In this document: piece by piece, positions 30,001 to 39,000 of the stretch
Layout of the letters: each line of letters begins with the position of its first letter
Numbering within the stretch: position 1 is the stretch's first letter
Assembly: GCA_037128175.1 (NCBI GenBank)
Contig: JBAXWY010000014.1
Location: 1-57,425, forward strand
Source: Methanothrix sp.
GTDB lineage: Archaea; Halobacteriota; Methanosarcinia; Methanotrichales; Methanotrichaceae
Direction: 5' to 3'
Length of the DNA: 57,425 bases
Position numbers: made by a program

Positions 30001-33000
30001 CTTCACCAACTCTATATCCAATCACTCTTTCAATTCTTAATGCATCCTTAAATGATTCTAATGCATGGTCCATCTTGTACTTTTTTTTATAAATAAGTCC
30101 AATATGGCCCAGCTGAATAGCCACCTTCTTCTTAACTCCTATTTTCTCAAATATATGCAGTCCTTTGTTGAGATAGTCGAGTGCTTTATCCAAATCGTCT
30201 TTTTCATAATAAACTAAACCGATACTGCATAGACATTGAGCTTCTCCTTCTTTGAACATAATTTTTTTAAATATATCTAAAGACTTAGTATGATATTTTA
30301 AGGCACTGTTGAAATCTCCTTTCTTTATGCAAAATTCTGCGAGGCTAGTTAGGGAAAATGCTTCATTTTGCTTATACTTTATATTTCTAGAAATTTTTAA
30401 GCTACTTATTATGCAACTTAATGCGTCACTCAACTTTCCTTTATCTATGAGAGCGTTACCGATGTTAATTAATTGTTCAGCTTCACCTTGCTTGAAATCA
30501 ATCATTTTGAAGATATCTTTTGCTTCATTGTGGTATTCGAGAGCCTTATCCAATTTGCCCTTGTCTCTGCAAATAAGAGCAATATTTGCCAAAGCTGAAG
30601 CCTCTCCTTGCTTGTAGCCTATCTCCTTAAAGATTCTTAGCGCATTTTTTCGGTATTCAAGAGATTGATTCAATTCGCCCTTATCTGCATAAATATTTCC
30701 TATATTTAAAAGATGTGTTGCTTCAGACTGTTTATTATTGATTTCTCTATCAATTTCGAGTGCTTTCTCTAGTAAATCAATAGCACCTTTTTGATCCCCT
30801 TTAATATAACAAATGCGTGCAAGGCTCCCCAAGACACTTGATTCCCCTTCTTTGTTATTGCCTTTTCTGAATATCTCTAGGGCATCTTTTTGGTAAAGAT
30901 ATGCATTCTCCGTTTCTCCTTTTTCGAGGAATATAATGCCTAAGTTGCTAAAAACTGCAGCTTTCATCAATCCGTTTCCCGAAGGATCAAAAATTTCTAA
31001 TCCTTTATTAAAACATTTAATGGCTTGGTCGACTTCTCCTTTACTTCTATAAATATTACCTATATTTAGCAATGCTGCTATTTGCATATCTATATCCTTA
31101 AACTTTTTATAGATTTCCAAGGCTTTAACAGAACATTCTCTGGATTTATCTAAATCACCTTTAATAAAATAAACAATTCCGATATTATTCAAAGCTGCAG
31201 CTGTAGATAAAATGGCTTCATCATTATAAATTGCTTGAATATTTGGCCTTCCAGAAATAACCAATAATTCTTTATAATAATTTTCTGCCTTTGATAACTC
31301 TCCCAAGCTTTGATAGCAATTTCCTGCAATTCCTAAGAAAATCATTTTATCTTTGGGACTCATAAATAAAGATGAGCAAGTATCTATTTCTTTAATTGTT
31401 TCGATATATCTCTCATCTTTTGCCAATTTGAGTATATTGCTTAAACGATTTGAAACTTCGGGATCATCCGAGAAAGGGACACCGTCTACATACCATTGAA
31501 GTCTGGTCTCCCGGCTTGCTTCGATCGTTCGGCTCTTTGCAATTTGAACTAGATTGATAATATATTCGTGAAGATCATCTGGTACTTGTTCTAAACCAGA
31601 ATCATAGTATTCATCATTTATTTTAATATTTGGAAAAAGGTTTATGCCATTATCAAAGAGTATCTCACAAACAGTTGATAATTGTGATTTTATTGAGCTA
31701 ATTATTTTTTCGTGCATTATTTCGACTAATTCATTTCCAAAGTACGTCCTGGGAAATCTGAACCATACTTTAATCTTATTATCTTTTATAGAAATACTTT
31801 CGACATAGTAATGTCCCCACCAATGATATTTGCTCTCTATCGGAATTTCTCTTAATTTAAGAATATCGATATTAACACGCTGTTTATCTGCATCCAGTTC
31901 ATCACCAAGTTGAAGGAGTGCTGCCAAAAGAGCCATCCTTAATTTTCCGCCGGATTTTTCAGCTAATTCATTAATATCTAAGCCTCGGTGATATTTGGAA
32001 ATGATTGCAATATAATGCGCATAATCTTTACAAATCTCCAATCCTAATGAAAATTGAGAATTCTGAGAAATTGATTCATTGATCATTCTTGCGCTTGCCA
32101 AGTTATGGGATTTCCTAATGATTTCCTTTTCTTCTGCATTATAGTCTTGTTTTTTTGGTAAATTGGCATGTTCTGGAGATTGCATACCTACATCATGCAA
32201 ATATGCAGAAGCTAACAGAACAAATCGCTCTTCTTCGGTTAATAAATTATTTTTATTACCTATTATCAATCCTAGTACATCAATAATTCTCTCAGAATGA
32301 TCTAAACCGTGACGAGTATAATGTTGAAGCAATTGGGGGTCCCAGAGTTTGCCTACGGCCAACCTTATGCTCGATAGGCAAGCCTTAAATGATTCATTTT
32401 GGATCACGAGACATTCCTGTATCATATTTATCCTGCAAGCAGAAACATGTGAGGTTGTATTTAGATTATAGTAGGGGAACAAAATTGCATATTTATTACC
32501 GACTAAAAAACTATCTGAATTCGCCAGCCAATACGACCCGCCCTTCCGCCATCGCCGCAACCCCGGACGGCCCGGCCCACAGGCAGTGGCCAATGAGCGC
32601 AGCCGAGCGCGAGCAGCAATCACAGACCTGCGGCTGCCCGGCGCTGTTTCCGGTAGCCTGCAAGAATTGCAAAGCAGTAGAACGCATCGAATCTTTGCGC
32701 GTCCTTTGTGCCTTTGTGCCTTTGTGGTTTGGTCCGTAGTTGCTGGAAATAATTATCAGCTAATAGTAATAGCGAGCCGATGGCATTGCTTTCTAAATTC
32801 TGCGCCCCGGAAAACTGCCCTTGCCGGAGGCTGGCTCTCCTGGCTCTCAGGCCCGACCGGCCTCCCGATCCCGAGCGCTTGCCCGGCTACCGAGTCCGCC
32901 TGGCGGACGACGGCTGTGGCCCTGGATGGCCTTTGCCGAAAAACGGCTCCACTGACGCGGCCCGAGGGCTCTGGCAAAAAATGTCCTCTTTTCATCGGAA

Positions 33001-36000: not shown

Positions 36001-39000
36001 GTCGAGCGGCTGCCCGGTGCTGTCGCCGATAGCTCGCAAGGATCACAAAACGTGAGGACTACATTGGATTTCTCTGCTAAAAAAGTCTCTGTGCGTCCTC
36101 CGTGCGCTCTCTGGTCTCTGTGGTGGGATCGTTAGTTGTATGGTTATAATTATCAGCTAATAGTAATGGCGAATCGTTATCATTTCCAAAATCCAGCGCC
36201 CTGAAAACTGCCCTTACCGAAGGCATGCGCCACCTGGATCTCAGGCCCGATCGGCCTCCTGTGCCCCCGAGCGATAGCCTGGCAGTCGGGCCCGCCTGGC
36301 CTTGTCACTCTCCTGTTCCAAGATGAAGAACATAATATGCATTCTGGCAACAATAATTTATGGTCGAATGCGCCTTCTGCCCGATCCCATGCTGCGCGTG
36401 GTCAGCAGGCTGCTCGACCGGCAAAACCGGCTGGAGGAGCAGCTGCAATTGGGACCACTTTGTCCGGCAGCAGAAGGCGAAAGCTTAGATATGGCTGCCG
36501 TCACAAAACGGTTTATTCTGCGATCTTCCGCACCTGCAGAGGGTGACGCGGTTTCGGGTCTCGTACAGTTTGCCGTTCGCTGATTCGATGGGTATGCCTC
36601 CTCGCACCCAGAGCGGCCCGTGCTCACCCCTTGGCGGGTATTCGATAACGACAATGGACTTATCCAATTCGGGCTCAATCGTTTTCCCGCTTTCATTATC
36701 CGTTATCACCAGCCGACCCGAGGGGCAGTTGCATGCTTCTTCTATGGCAATCTCCCTATCTCCCTGGTTTTCTGGATGCTTTACCAGATTCCAAATCCCA
36801 CCGGCTCGCATGCAGAACCTGGCATGGACGCAAAGATGCTCATTATCTGCCAATGTCAGCGCAGGACCATGGATTAATTTTGCCGTTTCGTCAAAGGGCA
36901 CATGGTCTCCGGCCTCGGTTCCTTCAAAGGAGATCTTTGCATGAGTCCCATCGCAGAAGGGTTTATTCTTCGAGTGGCCGCACCGACAGAGTGCATACTT
37001 TTCCTGCATGGGGTATCTCTTAACTTCCCGCCAGGTCCGGCAGTAGCCCTCATCATCGTTGCAAATCTCCGAGGTAGTGAGGGGTACAATGCCTGTCACG
37101 ATATATGGACCATTCTTGCTCACAGTTATTTTCATTTCTGTCATAATTTATGTTTCCTGTAAATTTCTAATCTTTTTGACTATAGAACCAACTTTATGGA
37201 AATATCTCAAATCCCCTGGGGAACTTGAAGCTTCTTTGTCCCAGCGCTCTATCCGTCGCCTCTAAATTACCCTTGTCATTTCCGGCAGTTTTGACTTTGT
37301 TCAATACATTGTCTGAGGACTCCTCCTCTTCCACCTGCTCCTTGATGTACCACTGCAGGAACTCTTTCGTCGCCTCATCCAATTCCTTCTCAGCTACCTT
37401 GACAAGGGTTTGAATGAGTCCTGTCACCACACGCTCGTGATCCCAAACATGCTGGAAGGCATGCAGAGGTGAGGTCCAGGTGAACTGGGGTGCCTCCACC
37501 GTCAGCATCTTAGCTCTGCCGCCTCTTCCTGCCACGTAGTCGAGCATCTTCATGGTATGAACCAGCTCTTCGCCTGCCTGTAGTCTCATCCAATGGGCAA
37601 AGCCCTTCATATTTATAGACTCGAAATGATAGGACATGGAGAGATAGAGATAGGAGGAGTACAGTTCCCTATTCGCCTGAACATTCAATGCTTCATTCAT
37701 CTTTTCGCTTAGCATGGCAATACACCCTAATCCATTCTACTTTGCCTTCTCAAATTGCTCTTTGCCGACACCGCATTCCGGACAGATCCAATCATCGGGA
37801 AGGTCCTCGAATGCCGTTCCTGGAGCGATGCCGGAGGTGGAATCTCCCTTTTCCGGATCGTAGGTGTATCCACATACCTTACAAACATACTTATCCATTT
37901 TTTAACTCACCTTCTAAATGAAATTTTCCAGCAGCGTATTTATTTTGCGGTCTCTTTCCGATAAATTCGGCCTATATTCTGGAAATGACTGATCAAAACG
38001 CTCTGCCTCAATTTGGTAGAACTTGCCCAGGGGAATAGGAACCTCGGAGCGGTCGTAGTTCCAGGAGCGAATGATCTTTTGCGCCTCCTCAAAGCTTGAG
38101 GCATCGTTCCCCTGCACTGTATAGGTCCACTTATTGTAGCTCTCATACATATTGTTGTAAGAGACGCAGACCTGGAGAACATCCACAAATGAGAAGCCCT
38201 TGTGCAATATCGCTTCCTTAAAGAGCTTCTGGAGCTGTTCAACGCCGTGCGTGTAGCCCCGGGCAATGTAAGACGCTCCCGAAACCAGCATCAGCTCGAG
38301 CGGGTTCATGGGATGTTCCCTTGTGCCCGCGGGCGTGGACTTGCCCTTGAAGCCCTGGGGCGATGTGGGCGTGTACTGCCCGGTGGTCAAGCCGTAGACG
38401 CGGTTGTCGTGCAGGATCATTGTAAGATCGATGTTCCTCTTGGCGGCGAAGATGAGATGATCAAGTCCCTCCGCCAGGCTATCCCCATCTCCGGAAAAGC
38501 AGATCACCTTCAAATCAGGATTGGCAATCTTTATGGCCGAAGCCGCAGGCAGCGTTCGGCCGTGAATGGAATAGAAGCTGTTCACATTCATGTAGTCCAC
38601 AATCTTGGCGTGGCAGCCTATGCCGGAGACCAGGACAACGTTTTCTACGGGAAAGCCTTGGCTGTCCAGTTCTGCCAGAACTGATCTCATGGCGCTTAGA
38701 ATGGAGAAGTTGCCGCAGCCGGGGCACCAGGAGTTCTTAGCAGTGGTAGCCAGATCTTTGGGATTCATATTCATGCCTGAGCCCTCCCCAGCTGTGCCAG
38801 AAGATCTTCCACGGAAAAAGGTCTGCCGTCATACTTCAAAATTCGGTCATGTTCCTGGATCTTGATGCCATAAAAGCCGGCCAGCCTGGCCAGTTGACCC
38901 GTGGAGTTGCACTCTACTGCAAGGAGCCTCTCTACCCCTTGCAAGGCATCCTTTAGCTTTCTTTCCGGGAAGGGCGAAAGAACCAGCACCTGAATCATCC

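Follow-up and report, generated by a model that had tools for sequence, protein, structure and literature searches.

Organization of the array locus

The window, i.e., the whole stretch of DNA analysed, covers 57,425 nucleotides of contig JBAXWY010000014.1 (C14) of Methanothrix sp. GCA_037128175.1 (G000), an assembly that is 99.8% complete and in 98 contigs. From 32520 to 36310 it is filled with co-oriented repeat modules, which have a G+C content of 0.60-0.63 versus 0.46-0.50 in the cassettes and flanks. The modules bracket two cassettes, one coding for a DUF4258 protein and an MqsA-like zinc-ribbon protein and the other for HicB and HicA (Table 1), both of which are predicted type II toxin-antitoxin (TA) modules, based on adjacent small genes that match toxin and antitoxin families. 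An earlier note on this DNA had described a one-way array with TA cassettes and G+C-rich gaps filled by a repeat, and both descriptions hold at this locus. Judging from module maps of the C14 array and five others, this genome has at least six such co-oriented arrays of cassettes. The arrays are under-assembled, as 13 module matches are found no more than 150 bp from a contig end.

Table 1. Features of the array and its surroundings on contig C14.
Feature	Position	Strand	Evidence
Partial ISL3-type MITE copy outside the array	16345..16445	-	D-profile match, positions 7-101
Partial ISL3-type MITE copy outside the array	29449..29527	-	D-profile match, positions 13-88
TPR + HD-CE protein, immediate left-hand neighbour of the array	29819..32434	-	Pfam PF24391 (5e-32) and TPR families; PADLOC TPR model
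Left end of array: partial AB (profile 35-122), then C	32520..32696	+	nhmmer module map; direct-repeat families D8, D13, D15
Module D, degenerate heptads (CCTTTGTG), decayed core	32691..32826	+	nhmmer module map; sequence
AB (profile 1-101), then ~85 nt including module E	32850..33030	+	nhmmer module map; sequence
Module E (CGGAACTTCGCGCCTTCGCGTGAATCCGTG)	32995..33025	+	Sequence
Gene-less units: AB-C-D, AB-D', AB-C-D (final D with extra heptads), AB (profile 34-120)	33032..34186	+	Direct-repeat families; module map
Cassette 1 (DUF4258 + MqsA-like)	34203..34800	+	Pfam
Cassette 1, DUF4258 toxin-like gene	34254..34535	+	Pfam PF14076 (6e-24)
Cassette 1, MqsA-like zinc-ribbon antitoxin gene	34535..34762	+	PF15731 (1.7e-5, under its curated cut-off)
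Full unit AB-C-D, then AB (profile 1-102)	34822..35301	+	Direct-repeat family D1; module map
Cassette 2 (HicB-like + HicA)	35340..35850	+	Pfam; sequence
Cassette 2, HicB-like antitoxin gene	35413..35640	+	Pfam; PF07927 (5e-21) among the cassette 2 matches
Cassette 2, HicA toxin gene	35624..35839	+	Pfam; PF21748 and PF15919 (~6e-6) among the cassette 2 matches
Right end of array: AB (profile 22-131), C, D, final AB stub	35883..36310	+	Direct-repeat families; module map

The array-type repeat, previously regarded as a single family of up to about 460 bp, is instead composite, i.e., a mosaic of the modules D, AB, and C and a rarer module E. The leftmost D copy listed is 95.8% identical to a D copy downstream of cassette 1 in the close relative G012, and module E also precedes AB on C41 and C69 and in G012 and G060. 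Open reading frames within the gene-less units are driven by the G+C content and present on both strands. Right of the array, the unique flank resumes at 36368 with 98% identity to G012.

Module D is a truncated MITE

Module D is an ISL3-family MITE in truncated form. It holds the CTCTGTG heptads and the GGTTATAA box, with roughly 80 nt in addition. The MITE itself is a palindrome of about 230 bp with its centre at GGTTATAACC. It has inverted repeats at its ends and is flanked by A/T-rich target duplications of 8 bp (e.g., TCCAAAAA, AAATTTTA, and ATTAAAGT), which are exact on C1, C20, C93, and C66 and near-exact on C6, C5, and C7. Its end motif was matched 60 times at up to five mismatches, including pairs 197-231 bp apart, and its inverted ends GGCTCTTCGCTATTTCCAGTGG and GGTTCCTCGCTGTTTCGAGTGG match the ends of 1.3-kb ISL3 elements in relatives. 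These full-length elements (L097-L101, L104, and L105) have MITE-type ends around a PF01610 gene and 8-bp duplications too. The ISL3 transposase (PF01610) was present in 23 of 40 sampled genomes of other members of the genus, but no copy that would mark an autonomous partner was found in the 98 contigs of G000.

The likeness of the arrays to ISL3 insertion sequences and their MITEs (inverted ends, 8-bp A/T-rich target duplications) is limited to module D, and the array copies differ from the MITE in that they consist of one arm and the centre only, are co-oriented, and have neither a clear left end nor a target duplication. We infer that the MITE-derived D entered the repeat unit once and was later copied along with it. 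The heptads and the box, which had been taken to define the array repeat, are parts of this MITE and are absent from the AB-only arrays of G055, G041, G008, and G007. Our own nhmmer profile of the heptad/TATA part reproduced the earlier count of 166 matches in G000, but at least 60 of these are the dispersed MITE, with 60 matches arranged in 30 head-to-head pairs, and 73 are other solo matches. The array-type extension is present in only 30, and 22 are situated no more than 300 bp from AB or C, so that the count mostly measures the MITE.

AB is the array-forming element

The array-forming element is AB, a G+C-rich, non-coding, lineage-specific module of about 110-130 bp, whose start reads ...CAG/GCCCGACCGGCCTCC. 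One AB follows each cassette and is often extended by module C (~100 bp). We assign this role to AB because arrays with AB and no D occur in the four genomes named above and because AB is the downstream neighbour in 37 of 46 gaps of at least 350 bp; the arrays of distant Methanothrix species consist of AB and cassettes of 0.6-1.1 kb only. The 24 AB and 21 C matches in G000 are confined to 10 contigs and nearly always form co-oriented runs, with solo or partial module copies on C20, C69, C41, and C9. The AB copies within G000 are only 71% alike, equal to the likeness between species (0.65-0.75), and conserved positions are spread over the whole of AB despite the 29% divergence between copies. 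Terminal inverted repeats and target duplications were found in neither AB nor C, and neither module was found in plasmids, phages, or viral contigs, save for one chance match.

AB was present in 41 of 58 other genus genomes, in both sister-genus genomes, and in none of 44 genomes from 14 other genera of the family. The repeat is thus limited to this lineage, as had been proposed, but the limit includes the sister genus. Two further repeat families, R2 and R3, build the same kind of TA array. AB, R2, and R3 look unrelated and share one architecture; all are G+C-rich, non-palindromic, and about 110-170 bp long. The R2 and R3 arrays had been missed in the earlier note, which also proposed no mechanism.

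Cassette content and variation between relatives

As judged from sequence, the cassettes of G000 are self-contained operons, each 0.5-1 kb long and usually a predicted type II TA pair. TA families were matched by 13 of the 16 cassettes (one by a weak YhaV match only), of which 11 run with the repeats and 2 are reversed; two reversed cassettes were also found in G012. The families in other arrays are PIN, ParE, RelB, MazF, HepT/MNT, UPF0150, DUF2281, and AF2212-like. The enrichment of TA genes near repeats reported earlier was recovered in an independent count, in which 11 of 42 toxin-domain matches (PIN 15, ParE 10, HicA 13, PemK 4) lay within 600 bp of a module, versus 5.0% of the genome (binomial 5e-6). 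As also stated earlier, most of them (31 of 42) were away from the repeats.

Of the 58 other genomes of the genus, 22 contain cassette 1 (79-98% identity), with the limits of homology within about 20 nt of those in Table 1. The cassette runs in the direction of the repeats at 19 of 19 loci, and its stop codon is followed by a T-rich stretch. Cassette 2, which has an AT-rich upstream stretch of its own (GTATTATATGC), is shared with G012 at 96.7% over 35144-35925. One cassette of the C51 array is the neighbour of cassette 1 in G057 and shares an array with it in G041, G055, and G065.

Arrays have variable defence genes beside them, and those of close relatives differ by whole cassettes, in line with the hypervariability claimed before. 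The orthologous array of G012 is 6.5 kb long with five cassettes, versus 3.8 kb and two cassettes here, between flanks that are 96-98% identical. The locus is syntenic in six genomes with differing adjoining defence genes, and across species at about 80% flank identity. The position directly left of the array is a variable defence-island slot, taken elsewhere by Gabija-like genes (G012 and G060), an HD-CE protein (G017), an nSTAND NTPase (G008), or a HATPase_c_3 protein (G040).

Junctions, structure, and recombinase search

The junction from a cassette into the downstream AB is remarkably constant, AB starting at profile position 7 or before in 22 of 37 cases and, after cassette 1, at position 6 or before in 12 of 17. 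The upstream module ends that abut cassettes vary (AB 75-129, C 60-102, D 86-150). Beyond cassette 1 on its downstream side, the sequences of four close relatives diverge within about 20-60 nt of the AB start. Breakpoints among them fall at several profile positions (AB19-59, AB47-57, D88/AB103), and the majority are in the first third of AB. Sharp, non-homologous junctions were seen twice, i.e., D88/AB103 and a 272-bp indel at the D core on C9, where the unit is present or absent exactly between two TATAATTATCNGCNAATATTA copies. The 5' end of cassette 1 carries a 16-nt fragment of the AB 3' end, even where D lies upstream (G059 and G010).

The earlier statements that the repeat has no conserved RNA structure, no Rfam family, and no integrase near the array all stand. 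The consensus fold of 19 AB-C units held 13 pairs with a covariation term of +0.42 and a double change in only 1 of 13 pairs, a proposed A-C helix did not exceed shuffled sequences (473 of 500 reached its score), and no Rfam match was obtained at E <= 1. Single-stranded DNA folds of six AB copies on both strands revealed no hairpin (11 of 12 z values between -1 and +1.5, one at -2.37), and those of six R2 copies gave 12 of 12 z values between -1.2 and +1.1. Short dyads (AGGCC-N5-GGCCT and GCTTGCC-A-GGCAAGC) are seen by eye in AB, while inspection of the consensus of 30 AB copies showed no terminal AAC...GTT core sites and inspection of AB no recognisable dif-like site (11 bp, 6-bp spacer, 11 bp). 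Of six PF00589 matches in G000, none lies on C14, and no recombinase was found in the interval that separates the array from the conserved flank in G012, G060, G040, G017, G008, and G047.

Possible mechanisms of array formation

We tentatively prefer, as a reading that falls just short of probable, that the repeats serve as portable homology arms and that homologous recombination between them shapes the arrays. Such recombination, with gene conversion and unequal crossing-over among its forms, would delete, duplicate, and swap whole repeat-plus-cassette units. The partner DNA would lie in the same genome or come in from related strains, and exchange would take place between strains and between arrays. 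The arrays lie in fast-turnover defence islands, and the TA pairs would stabilise them by addiction and may serve in defence. This would need neither a dedicated recombinase nor a structured site, and we favour homologous over site-specific exchange because the breakpoints are scattered, the upstream ends vary, hairpin and covariation were not found, and no recombinase adjoins the arrays in G000 and the six syntenic genomes examined. However, it counts against homologous recombination that it accounts for the shuffling of unrelated cassettes and not for their first placing between homologous repeats, and that AB copies with 71% likeness are a poor substrate for it. The constant cassette-to-AB junction, the breakpoints mostly in the first third of AB, and the two sharp junctions also weigh against it, and a dedicated process is hinted at by the architecture that three unrelated-looking repeat families share. 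BIMEs of E. coli and NIMEs of Neisseria are likewise non-coding, lineage-restricted intergenic modules of varying order that are thought to promote recombination. They are short palindromic units, mostly with no genes between them, whereas the modules here are non-palindromic, 110-370 bp long, all in one direction, and interspersed with whole TA operons.

With TA pairs in rows split by one non-coding repeat and no visible recombination machinery, the arrays of this methanogenic archaeon resemble integrons. Sedentary chromosomal integrons and CALINs (attC clusters lacking an integrase) share with them co-oriented arrays of short cassettes with a repeat after each (about 60-140 bp in integrons), common TA cassettes, some of them inverted, strong variation between close strains, and, in some arrays, the lack of an adjacent integrase. 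The terminal cores of integron attC sites are RYYYAAC ... GTTRRRY. AB differs in lacking AAC/GTT core sites in its consensus and in being conserved in sequence and not in structure, without an imperfect-palindrome hairpin; besides, no IntI-type integrase lies nearby and the upstream junctions vary. In the pdif (XerC/XerD) modules of Acinetobacter plasmids and in IMEX arrays at dif, short recombination sites flank small modules that are frequently TA pairs, can form tandem arrays, and are moved by a host recombinase encoded elsewhere. All AB sites are direct and not alternating, no dif-like site is recognisable in AB by inspection, and the arrays here are several, at several chromosomal loci, with different repeat families.

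It is rather unlikely, though worth considering, that an integron-like or IMEX/pdif-like system operates here, in which the recombinase, XerA or an enzyme not recognised as such, would be encoded elsewhere. It would act on a core site that surrounds the dyad AGGCC-N5-GGCCT close to the AB 5' end, with the D core as a possible second site, and circles of cassette plus repeat would be inserted and excised, giving co-oriented arrays. Unrelated cassettes of 0.6-1.1 kb between homologous one-way repeats, the constant junction and the divergence just beyond it in the four relatives, the 16-nt AB fragment, the precise 272-bp unit on C9, and the same layout in three repeat families are consistent with such a system. 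According to the paper on archaeal integrons (PMC9668308), TA cassettes are typical of integrons, and a term search of its main text did not return Methanothrix. Nevertheless, AB and R2 form no hairpin, consensus structure and covariation were not found, terminal cores were not seen by inspection, no recombinase adjoins the arrays in G000 and the six syntenic genomes examined, and upstream junctions and breakpoints occupy more than one position. The one accessory tyrosine recombinase family tested does not track AB either, being sporadic, present in G005 and G053, which lack AB, and not found in the AB-rich G012, G059, and G057. We consider it equally doubtful that Methanothrix and its sister genus own a cassette system analogous to integrons and mechanistically distinct from them, with repeats of at least three families (AB, R2, and R3) serving an unlinked recombinase as its sites. 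Autonomous TA and defence cassettes would be captured by this enzyme, stacked, and exchanged, at several loci of the chromosome.

It seems improbable that the repeats act in cis on expression and are conserved for this role, be it as a shared promoter and leader, as a terminator or 3' UTR, or as an insulator that punctuates transcription between adjacent TA operons, in arrays arising by ordinary duplication. The predominant cassette direction (11 of 13 in G000, cassette 1 at 19 of 19 loci), AB at a fixed short distance after the upstream stop codon, the TATA-like TTATAA in D, and the conserved positions along the whole of AB would fit this explanation. The same is true of RNA-library contigs from three studies (runs X2, X3, and X5; 88-97% likeness) that span cassette 1 into AB-C, but in these neither transcript ends nor strand are readable and DNA carry-over is possible. 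Moreover, D with its TATA-like box, which is the palindrome centre in the MITE, is absent from AB-only arrays, some cassettes are reversed, cassette 2 has its own upstream AT-rich box and cassette 1 its own T-rich stretch after the stop codon, no conserved RNA structure was found, and duplication would leave the unrelated genes between repeats unexplained.

Finally, it is very improbable that all modules are selfish non-autonomous mobile elements inserting beside TA genes or each other, with the arrays as functionless insertion hot spots, since the MITE nature of D, for which target duplications are seen and relatives carry the autonomous partner, the mosaic module order, the solo or partial copies, and the frequent module matches at contig ends are set against AB and C modules that lack terminal inverted repeats and target duplications, occur on only 10 contigs in almost always co-oriented runs, are not found in plasmids, phages, or viral contigs beyond the one chance match, and lie at a locus whose synteny across species points to long residence and not to repeated insertion.

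Architecture of the array

The assembly that carries the window (G000) comprises 2.96 Mb in 98 contigs with 51% G+C, the window being its contig C14, and the closest public relatives of the window are Methanothrix and Methanotrichaceae genomes, with an adjoining gene up to 98% identical. Positions 32520-36310 consist of direct repeats in one orientation with a G+C content of 0.60-0.63, broken twice by stretches of about 0.5-0.6 kb of ordinary composition (0.46-0.47); long open reading frames within the repeats are found on both strands and are thus a by-product of the G+C content. 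This bears out the co-oriented repeats and toxin-antitoxin (TA) cassettes that an earlier note had described here. Its claim of a single repeat family stood only in part: the repeats are present, but profile searches split them into separate modules (D, AB, C and E, listed in the table), so that the array is a mosaic with the order AB-C-D-AB(E)-AB-C-D-AB-D'-AB-C-D-AB, cassette 1, AB-C-D-AB, cassette 2, AB-C-D-AB.

Across G000, module D has 166 matches on 44 contigs, and AB and C have 24 and 21 on only 10 contigs; these counts, like that of the arrays, are lower bounds since the repeats break the assembly. Thirteen module matches lie within 150 bp of contig ends (C2, C11, C19, C33, C36, C45, C51, C52, C67, C72 and C73). 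The small module E recurs immediately ahead of certain AB copies. Elsewhere in the window, the 1.5 kb to either side of a PIN-domain match (46642-47007, minus strand) are free of repeat modules.

Features of the array, its surroundings and related arrays (G, genome; C, contig; L, fetched locus)
Feature	Location	Strand	Description
Module AB			about 130 nt; start at ...CAG/GCCCGACCGGCCTCC
Module C			about 104 nt; includes GCGGCTGCCCGGCGCTGCTGCC and CGCAAGGATC
Module D			at least four CTCTGTG heptads, then GGTTATAA, then about 80 nt
Module E	window 32995-33025; also C41, C69, G012, G060		rarer small module, CGGAACTTCGCGCCTTCGCGTGAAYCCGTG
Cassette 1	window 34254-34762		DUF4258 protein and MqsA-like zinc-ribbon protein
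Cassette 2	window 35413-35839		HicB and HicA
Slot between flank and array	window 29819-32434	-	TPR and HD-CE
Same slot	G012, G060		Gabija-like ATPase and helicase (GajA/GajB-like)
Same slot	G017		1032-aa HD-CE protein
Same slot	G008		nSTAND NTPase
Same slot	G040		HATPase_c_3 protein
R2 array	C10:43136-49265 (L157)		7 copies of a repeat of about 110 bp, 0.65-2 kb apart; ParE, PIN, two HicA matches
R3 array	C4:70871-78021 (L158)		6 copies of a repeat of about 110-150 bp, about 1 kb apart; three PIN matches
R3 array in a relative	G012:C6:364223-369707		

AB is the conserved module that punctuates the arrays. Those of four other genomes (G055, G041, G008 and G007) are built only of AB and cassettes of 0.6-1.1 kb, and most units in G017 and G043 are AB-C without D. 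Of 46 gaps in the fetched loci that measure 350 bp or more, a few of which are not array cassettes, 37 are followed by AB, 7 by D and 2 by C, and 22 of these 37 AB modules begin at profile position 7 or earlier. The module that precedes the gap is AB 24 times, D 14 times and C 8 times, with many different end positions. With a sequence-only model, AB was recovered from 41 of the 58 other genus genomes and from both sister-genus genomes, but from 0 of 44 genomes that represent 14 other genera of the family. A DNA search gave no match in 12 genomes belonging to two further families of the class. The restriction to the genus proposed earlier therefore holds against those 14 genera and has to be widened to include the sister genus. 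AB copies inside G000 are 71% alike, equal to the likeness between species, and homogenised copies occur only in G008 (0.88 within the genome) and in the G041/G055 pair (0.78-0.79). Concerted evolution of AB in G000 was rejected, as the copies there are not homogenised.

Six arrays of G000 (on C14, C17, C19, C44, C51 and C52) contain 16 gaps of ordinary composition, and 13 of these cassettes match a TA family (PIN, ParE/RelB, MazF, HicAB/UPF0150, HepT/MNT, DUF4258, DUF2281 or AF2212-like), one of them via a weak YhaV match only; the remaining three hold unknown ORFs or a beta-lactamase-fold gene. Eleven of the 13 TA cassettes are oriented with the repeats and two against them. In agreement with the earlier claim that TA genes are enriched near the repeats although most lie elsewhere, 11 of 42 toxin-domain matches are within 600 bp of any module, compared with 5.0% of the genome (binomial 5e-6), and for AB or C alone the same distance takes in 6 of 42, compared with 0.9% (binomial 2e-6); 31 of 42 lie away from these modules.

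Module D is part of an ISL3-type MITE

Sixty of the 166 D matches form 30 overlapping head-to-head pairs, each of them a palindromic element of about 226-231 bp with the centre GGTTATAACC, terminal inverted repeats GGCTCTTCGCTATTTCCAGTGG and GGTTCCTCGCTGTTTCGAGTGG and A/T-rich target duplications of 8 bp. The ISL3 transposase gene (PF01610) was not found in the G000 assembly; 23 of 40 other genus genomes sampled do carry it, and the 1.3-kb ISL3 elements of these relatives have the same ends as the D-type element and 8-bp duplications too. Considering the palindrome, the inverted ends, the duplications and the matching elements in relatives, we conclude that the "TATA-like box" is the centre of an ISL3-type MITE and that the CTCTGTG heptads form one of its arms. 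Both features, by which the repeat had previously been defined, are present in the window, but they belong to the MITE, and arrays with AB alone exist. The MITE itself is an ordinary addition to a known kind, and its copies should not be counted as array repeats. Together with the repeats at contig ends, the recognition of D as a MITE explains assembly breaks in metagenome-derived Methanothrix genomes.

On contig C9 of G000, a short form of the MITE begins with a proper inverted end. The orthologous site in G012 (L116) carries this short element alone, while G000 (C9:40015-40470, L106) has an extra 272 bp, composed of a D-extension, AB, C and a second D core, that sits exactly between two TATAATTATCNGCNAATATTA copies and directly upstream of a gene starting at C9:40533. 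Module D probably entered the repeat unit once and was then amplified with it.

Turnover between close relatives and the defence setting

The arrays turn over by whole units, are set beside variable defence genes and are restricted to this lineage. The orthologous array of G012, with flanks 96-98% identical, spans 6.5 kb with five cassettes, compared with 3.8 kb and two cassettes in the window, which supports the view that the arrays are hypervariable between close relatives. Cassettes 1 and 2 are both common to the two genomes (about 96.5%), and G012 has in addition a small unknown cassette and two PIN cassettes in reverse orientation. Just outside the right end of the G012 array, a 1.4-kb insertion that the window lacks includes a TnpB-type fragment, a 257-aa ORF (L090:4687-5460) with the domains HTH_OrfB_IS605 and OrfB_IS605.

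The locus is syntenic, lying downstream of one conserved flank (up to C14:27037) in G012, G060, G040, G017, G008 and G047. The slot between this flank and the array holds a different gene in nearly every genome and looks like a defence-island hot spot; PADLOC, applied to five window proteins, contributed no more than a TPR model and one weak match to PDC-S39.

Cassette 1 occurs in 22 of 58 other genus genomes at 79-98% identity and has the same orientation as AB in all 19 fetched loci. AB lies directly downstream of it in 15 of the 17 loci that reach past the cassette, and 12 AB modules in this position begin at profile position 6 or earlier. Shuffling is evident from one cassette of the C51 array, which is the neighbour of cassette 1 in G057 and shares an array with it in G041, G055 and G065. 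When the four closest genomes (G000, G012, G059 and G060) are compared, the block of high identity to the right of cassette 1 stops at AB profile positions 19-59, and that to the left at AB 47-57 or at a sharp D88/AB103 junction; the breakpoints thus concentrate early in AB but not at one position. In G059 (C38, L141), an array with cassette 1 (96-98%) adjoins 8.4 kb that are 92% identical to C15:22274-30626 and not to the C14 flank; either the repeats mediated a rearrangement there, or the join is an assembly chimera. G000 carries a MITE at C15:30646-30851.

Possible mechanisms of cassette exchange

The absence of an Rfam family, of a conserved RNA structure and of a nearby integrase, all stated in the earlier note, was confirmed. 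Rfam gave no match within 32000-37000 at E <= 1, and 19 AB-C units yielded neither a consensus structure nor covariation. A stem proposed by hand in the B part (CGCCGC/GCGGCG) consisted mostly of mismatches or wobbles when checked copy by copy, and a proposed A-C helix did not rise above shuffles. Single-stranded DNA hairpins of AB and R2 folded no better than dinucleotide shuffles, so the defining feature of attC is lacking. No recombinase was found beside the arrays of G000 and six syntenic genomes. An accessory tyrosine recombinase (on C5) was rejected as a dedicated enzyme, being sporadic and not tracking AB among 59 genomes; this profiling covered the C5 family. G000 also has a XerA-like gene on C7, of a kind expected everywhere. 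An origin from a plasmid, phage or virus was rejected: plasmid and phage collections gave no match in distant mode, and of two motif scans run on viral contigs one gave 0 matches and the other 1, the latter by chance and with neither AB nor D nearby.

Eight RNA runs contained at most 8% of the sampled words, and the contig sets of four runs show only 88-97% likeness to the window and thus come from relatives. These contigs join cassette 1 to AB-C, though starts, ends, strand and true transcription cannot be read from them, and their missing cover over cassette 2, the TPR gene and others is without meaning.

We tentatively place first, as the engine of the arrays, recombination between repeats, which would exchange whole repeat-plus-cassette units. 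This ranking follows from junctions and breakpoints that are not unique, from the lack of a structured site or nearby enzyme and from the exchange of whole units. If correct, the arrays would be a clear natural case of non-coding repeats serving as portable homology arms for defence-gene exchange. On the other hand, a process like that of integrons or Xer systems, driven by an unlinked recombinase, is possible, if somewhat less probable. Five points speak for it: the way in which unrelated cassettes were first taken up between homologous repeats is unexplained; the junction from cassette to AB is constant; two junctions are sharp and lack homology; likeness among AB copies is just 71%; and one layout is common to three repeat families. 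The arrays resemble integron/CALIN arrays, but the defining features of these that were tested failed; they likewise resemble pdif modules and mosaic intergenic repeats but cannot be filed under either. If a dedicated recombination mechanism exists, the arrays could be something beyond the known kinds and would represent a new type of archaeal gene-capture platform. A purely regulatory role of the repeats is unlikely and a purely selfish spread even more so, both fitting less well than repeat recombination or an integron- or Xer-like process.

Methanothrix species are among Earth's main acetate-consuming methane producers, and to our knowledge little is known of how their genomes change. Searches of the literature on Methanothrix/Methanosaeta repeats, MITEs and TA arrays, supplements aside, found neither these arrays nor the MITE described. 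The arrays give accessory TA and defence genes a regular, cassette-like order across most Methanothrix species, with several independent repeat families and fast turnover between close relatives.

Further repeat families

Some TA genes of G000 that appeared unlinked sit in arrays on other G+C-rich direct repeats, R2 and R3. The ends of R2 are partly complementary (CGACCGG...CCGGTCG), with folding no better than in shuffles. Of 58 other genus genomes, 23 contain R2 and 20 contain R3, and in relatives both form co-oriented runs with a spacing of 0.75-1.6 kb (e.g., G001:C66, G016:C172, G012:C6 and G061:C311). The C17 array is built on yet another G+C-rich body. Close to PIN and ParE matches at C16:49990-52870 (L159) are four direct repeats, each about 140-200 bp long and at a spacing of about 0.9-1 kb, which look like paralogous coding parts rather than non-coding spacers.
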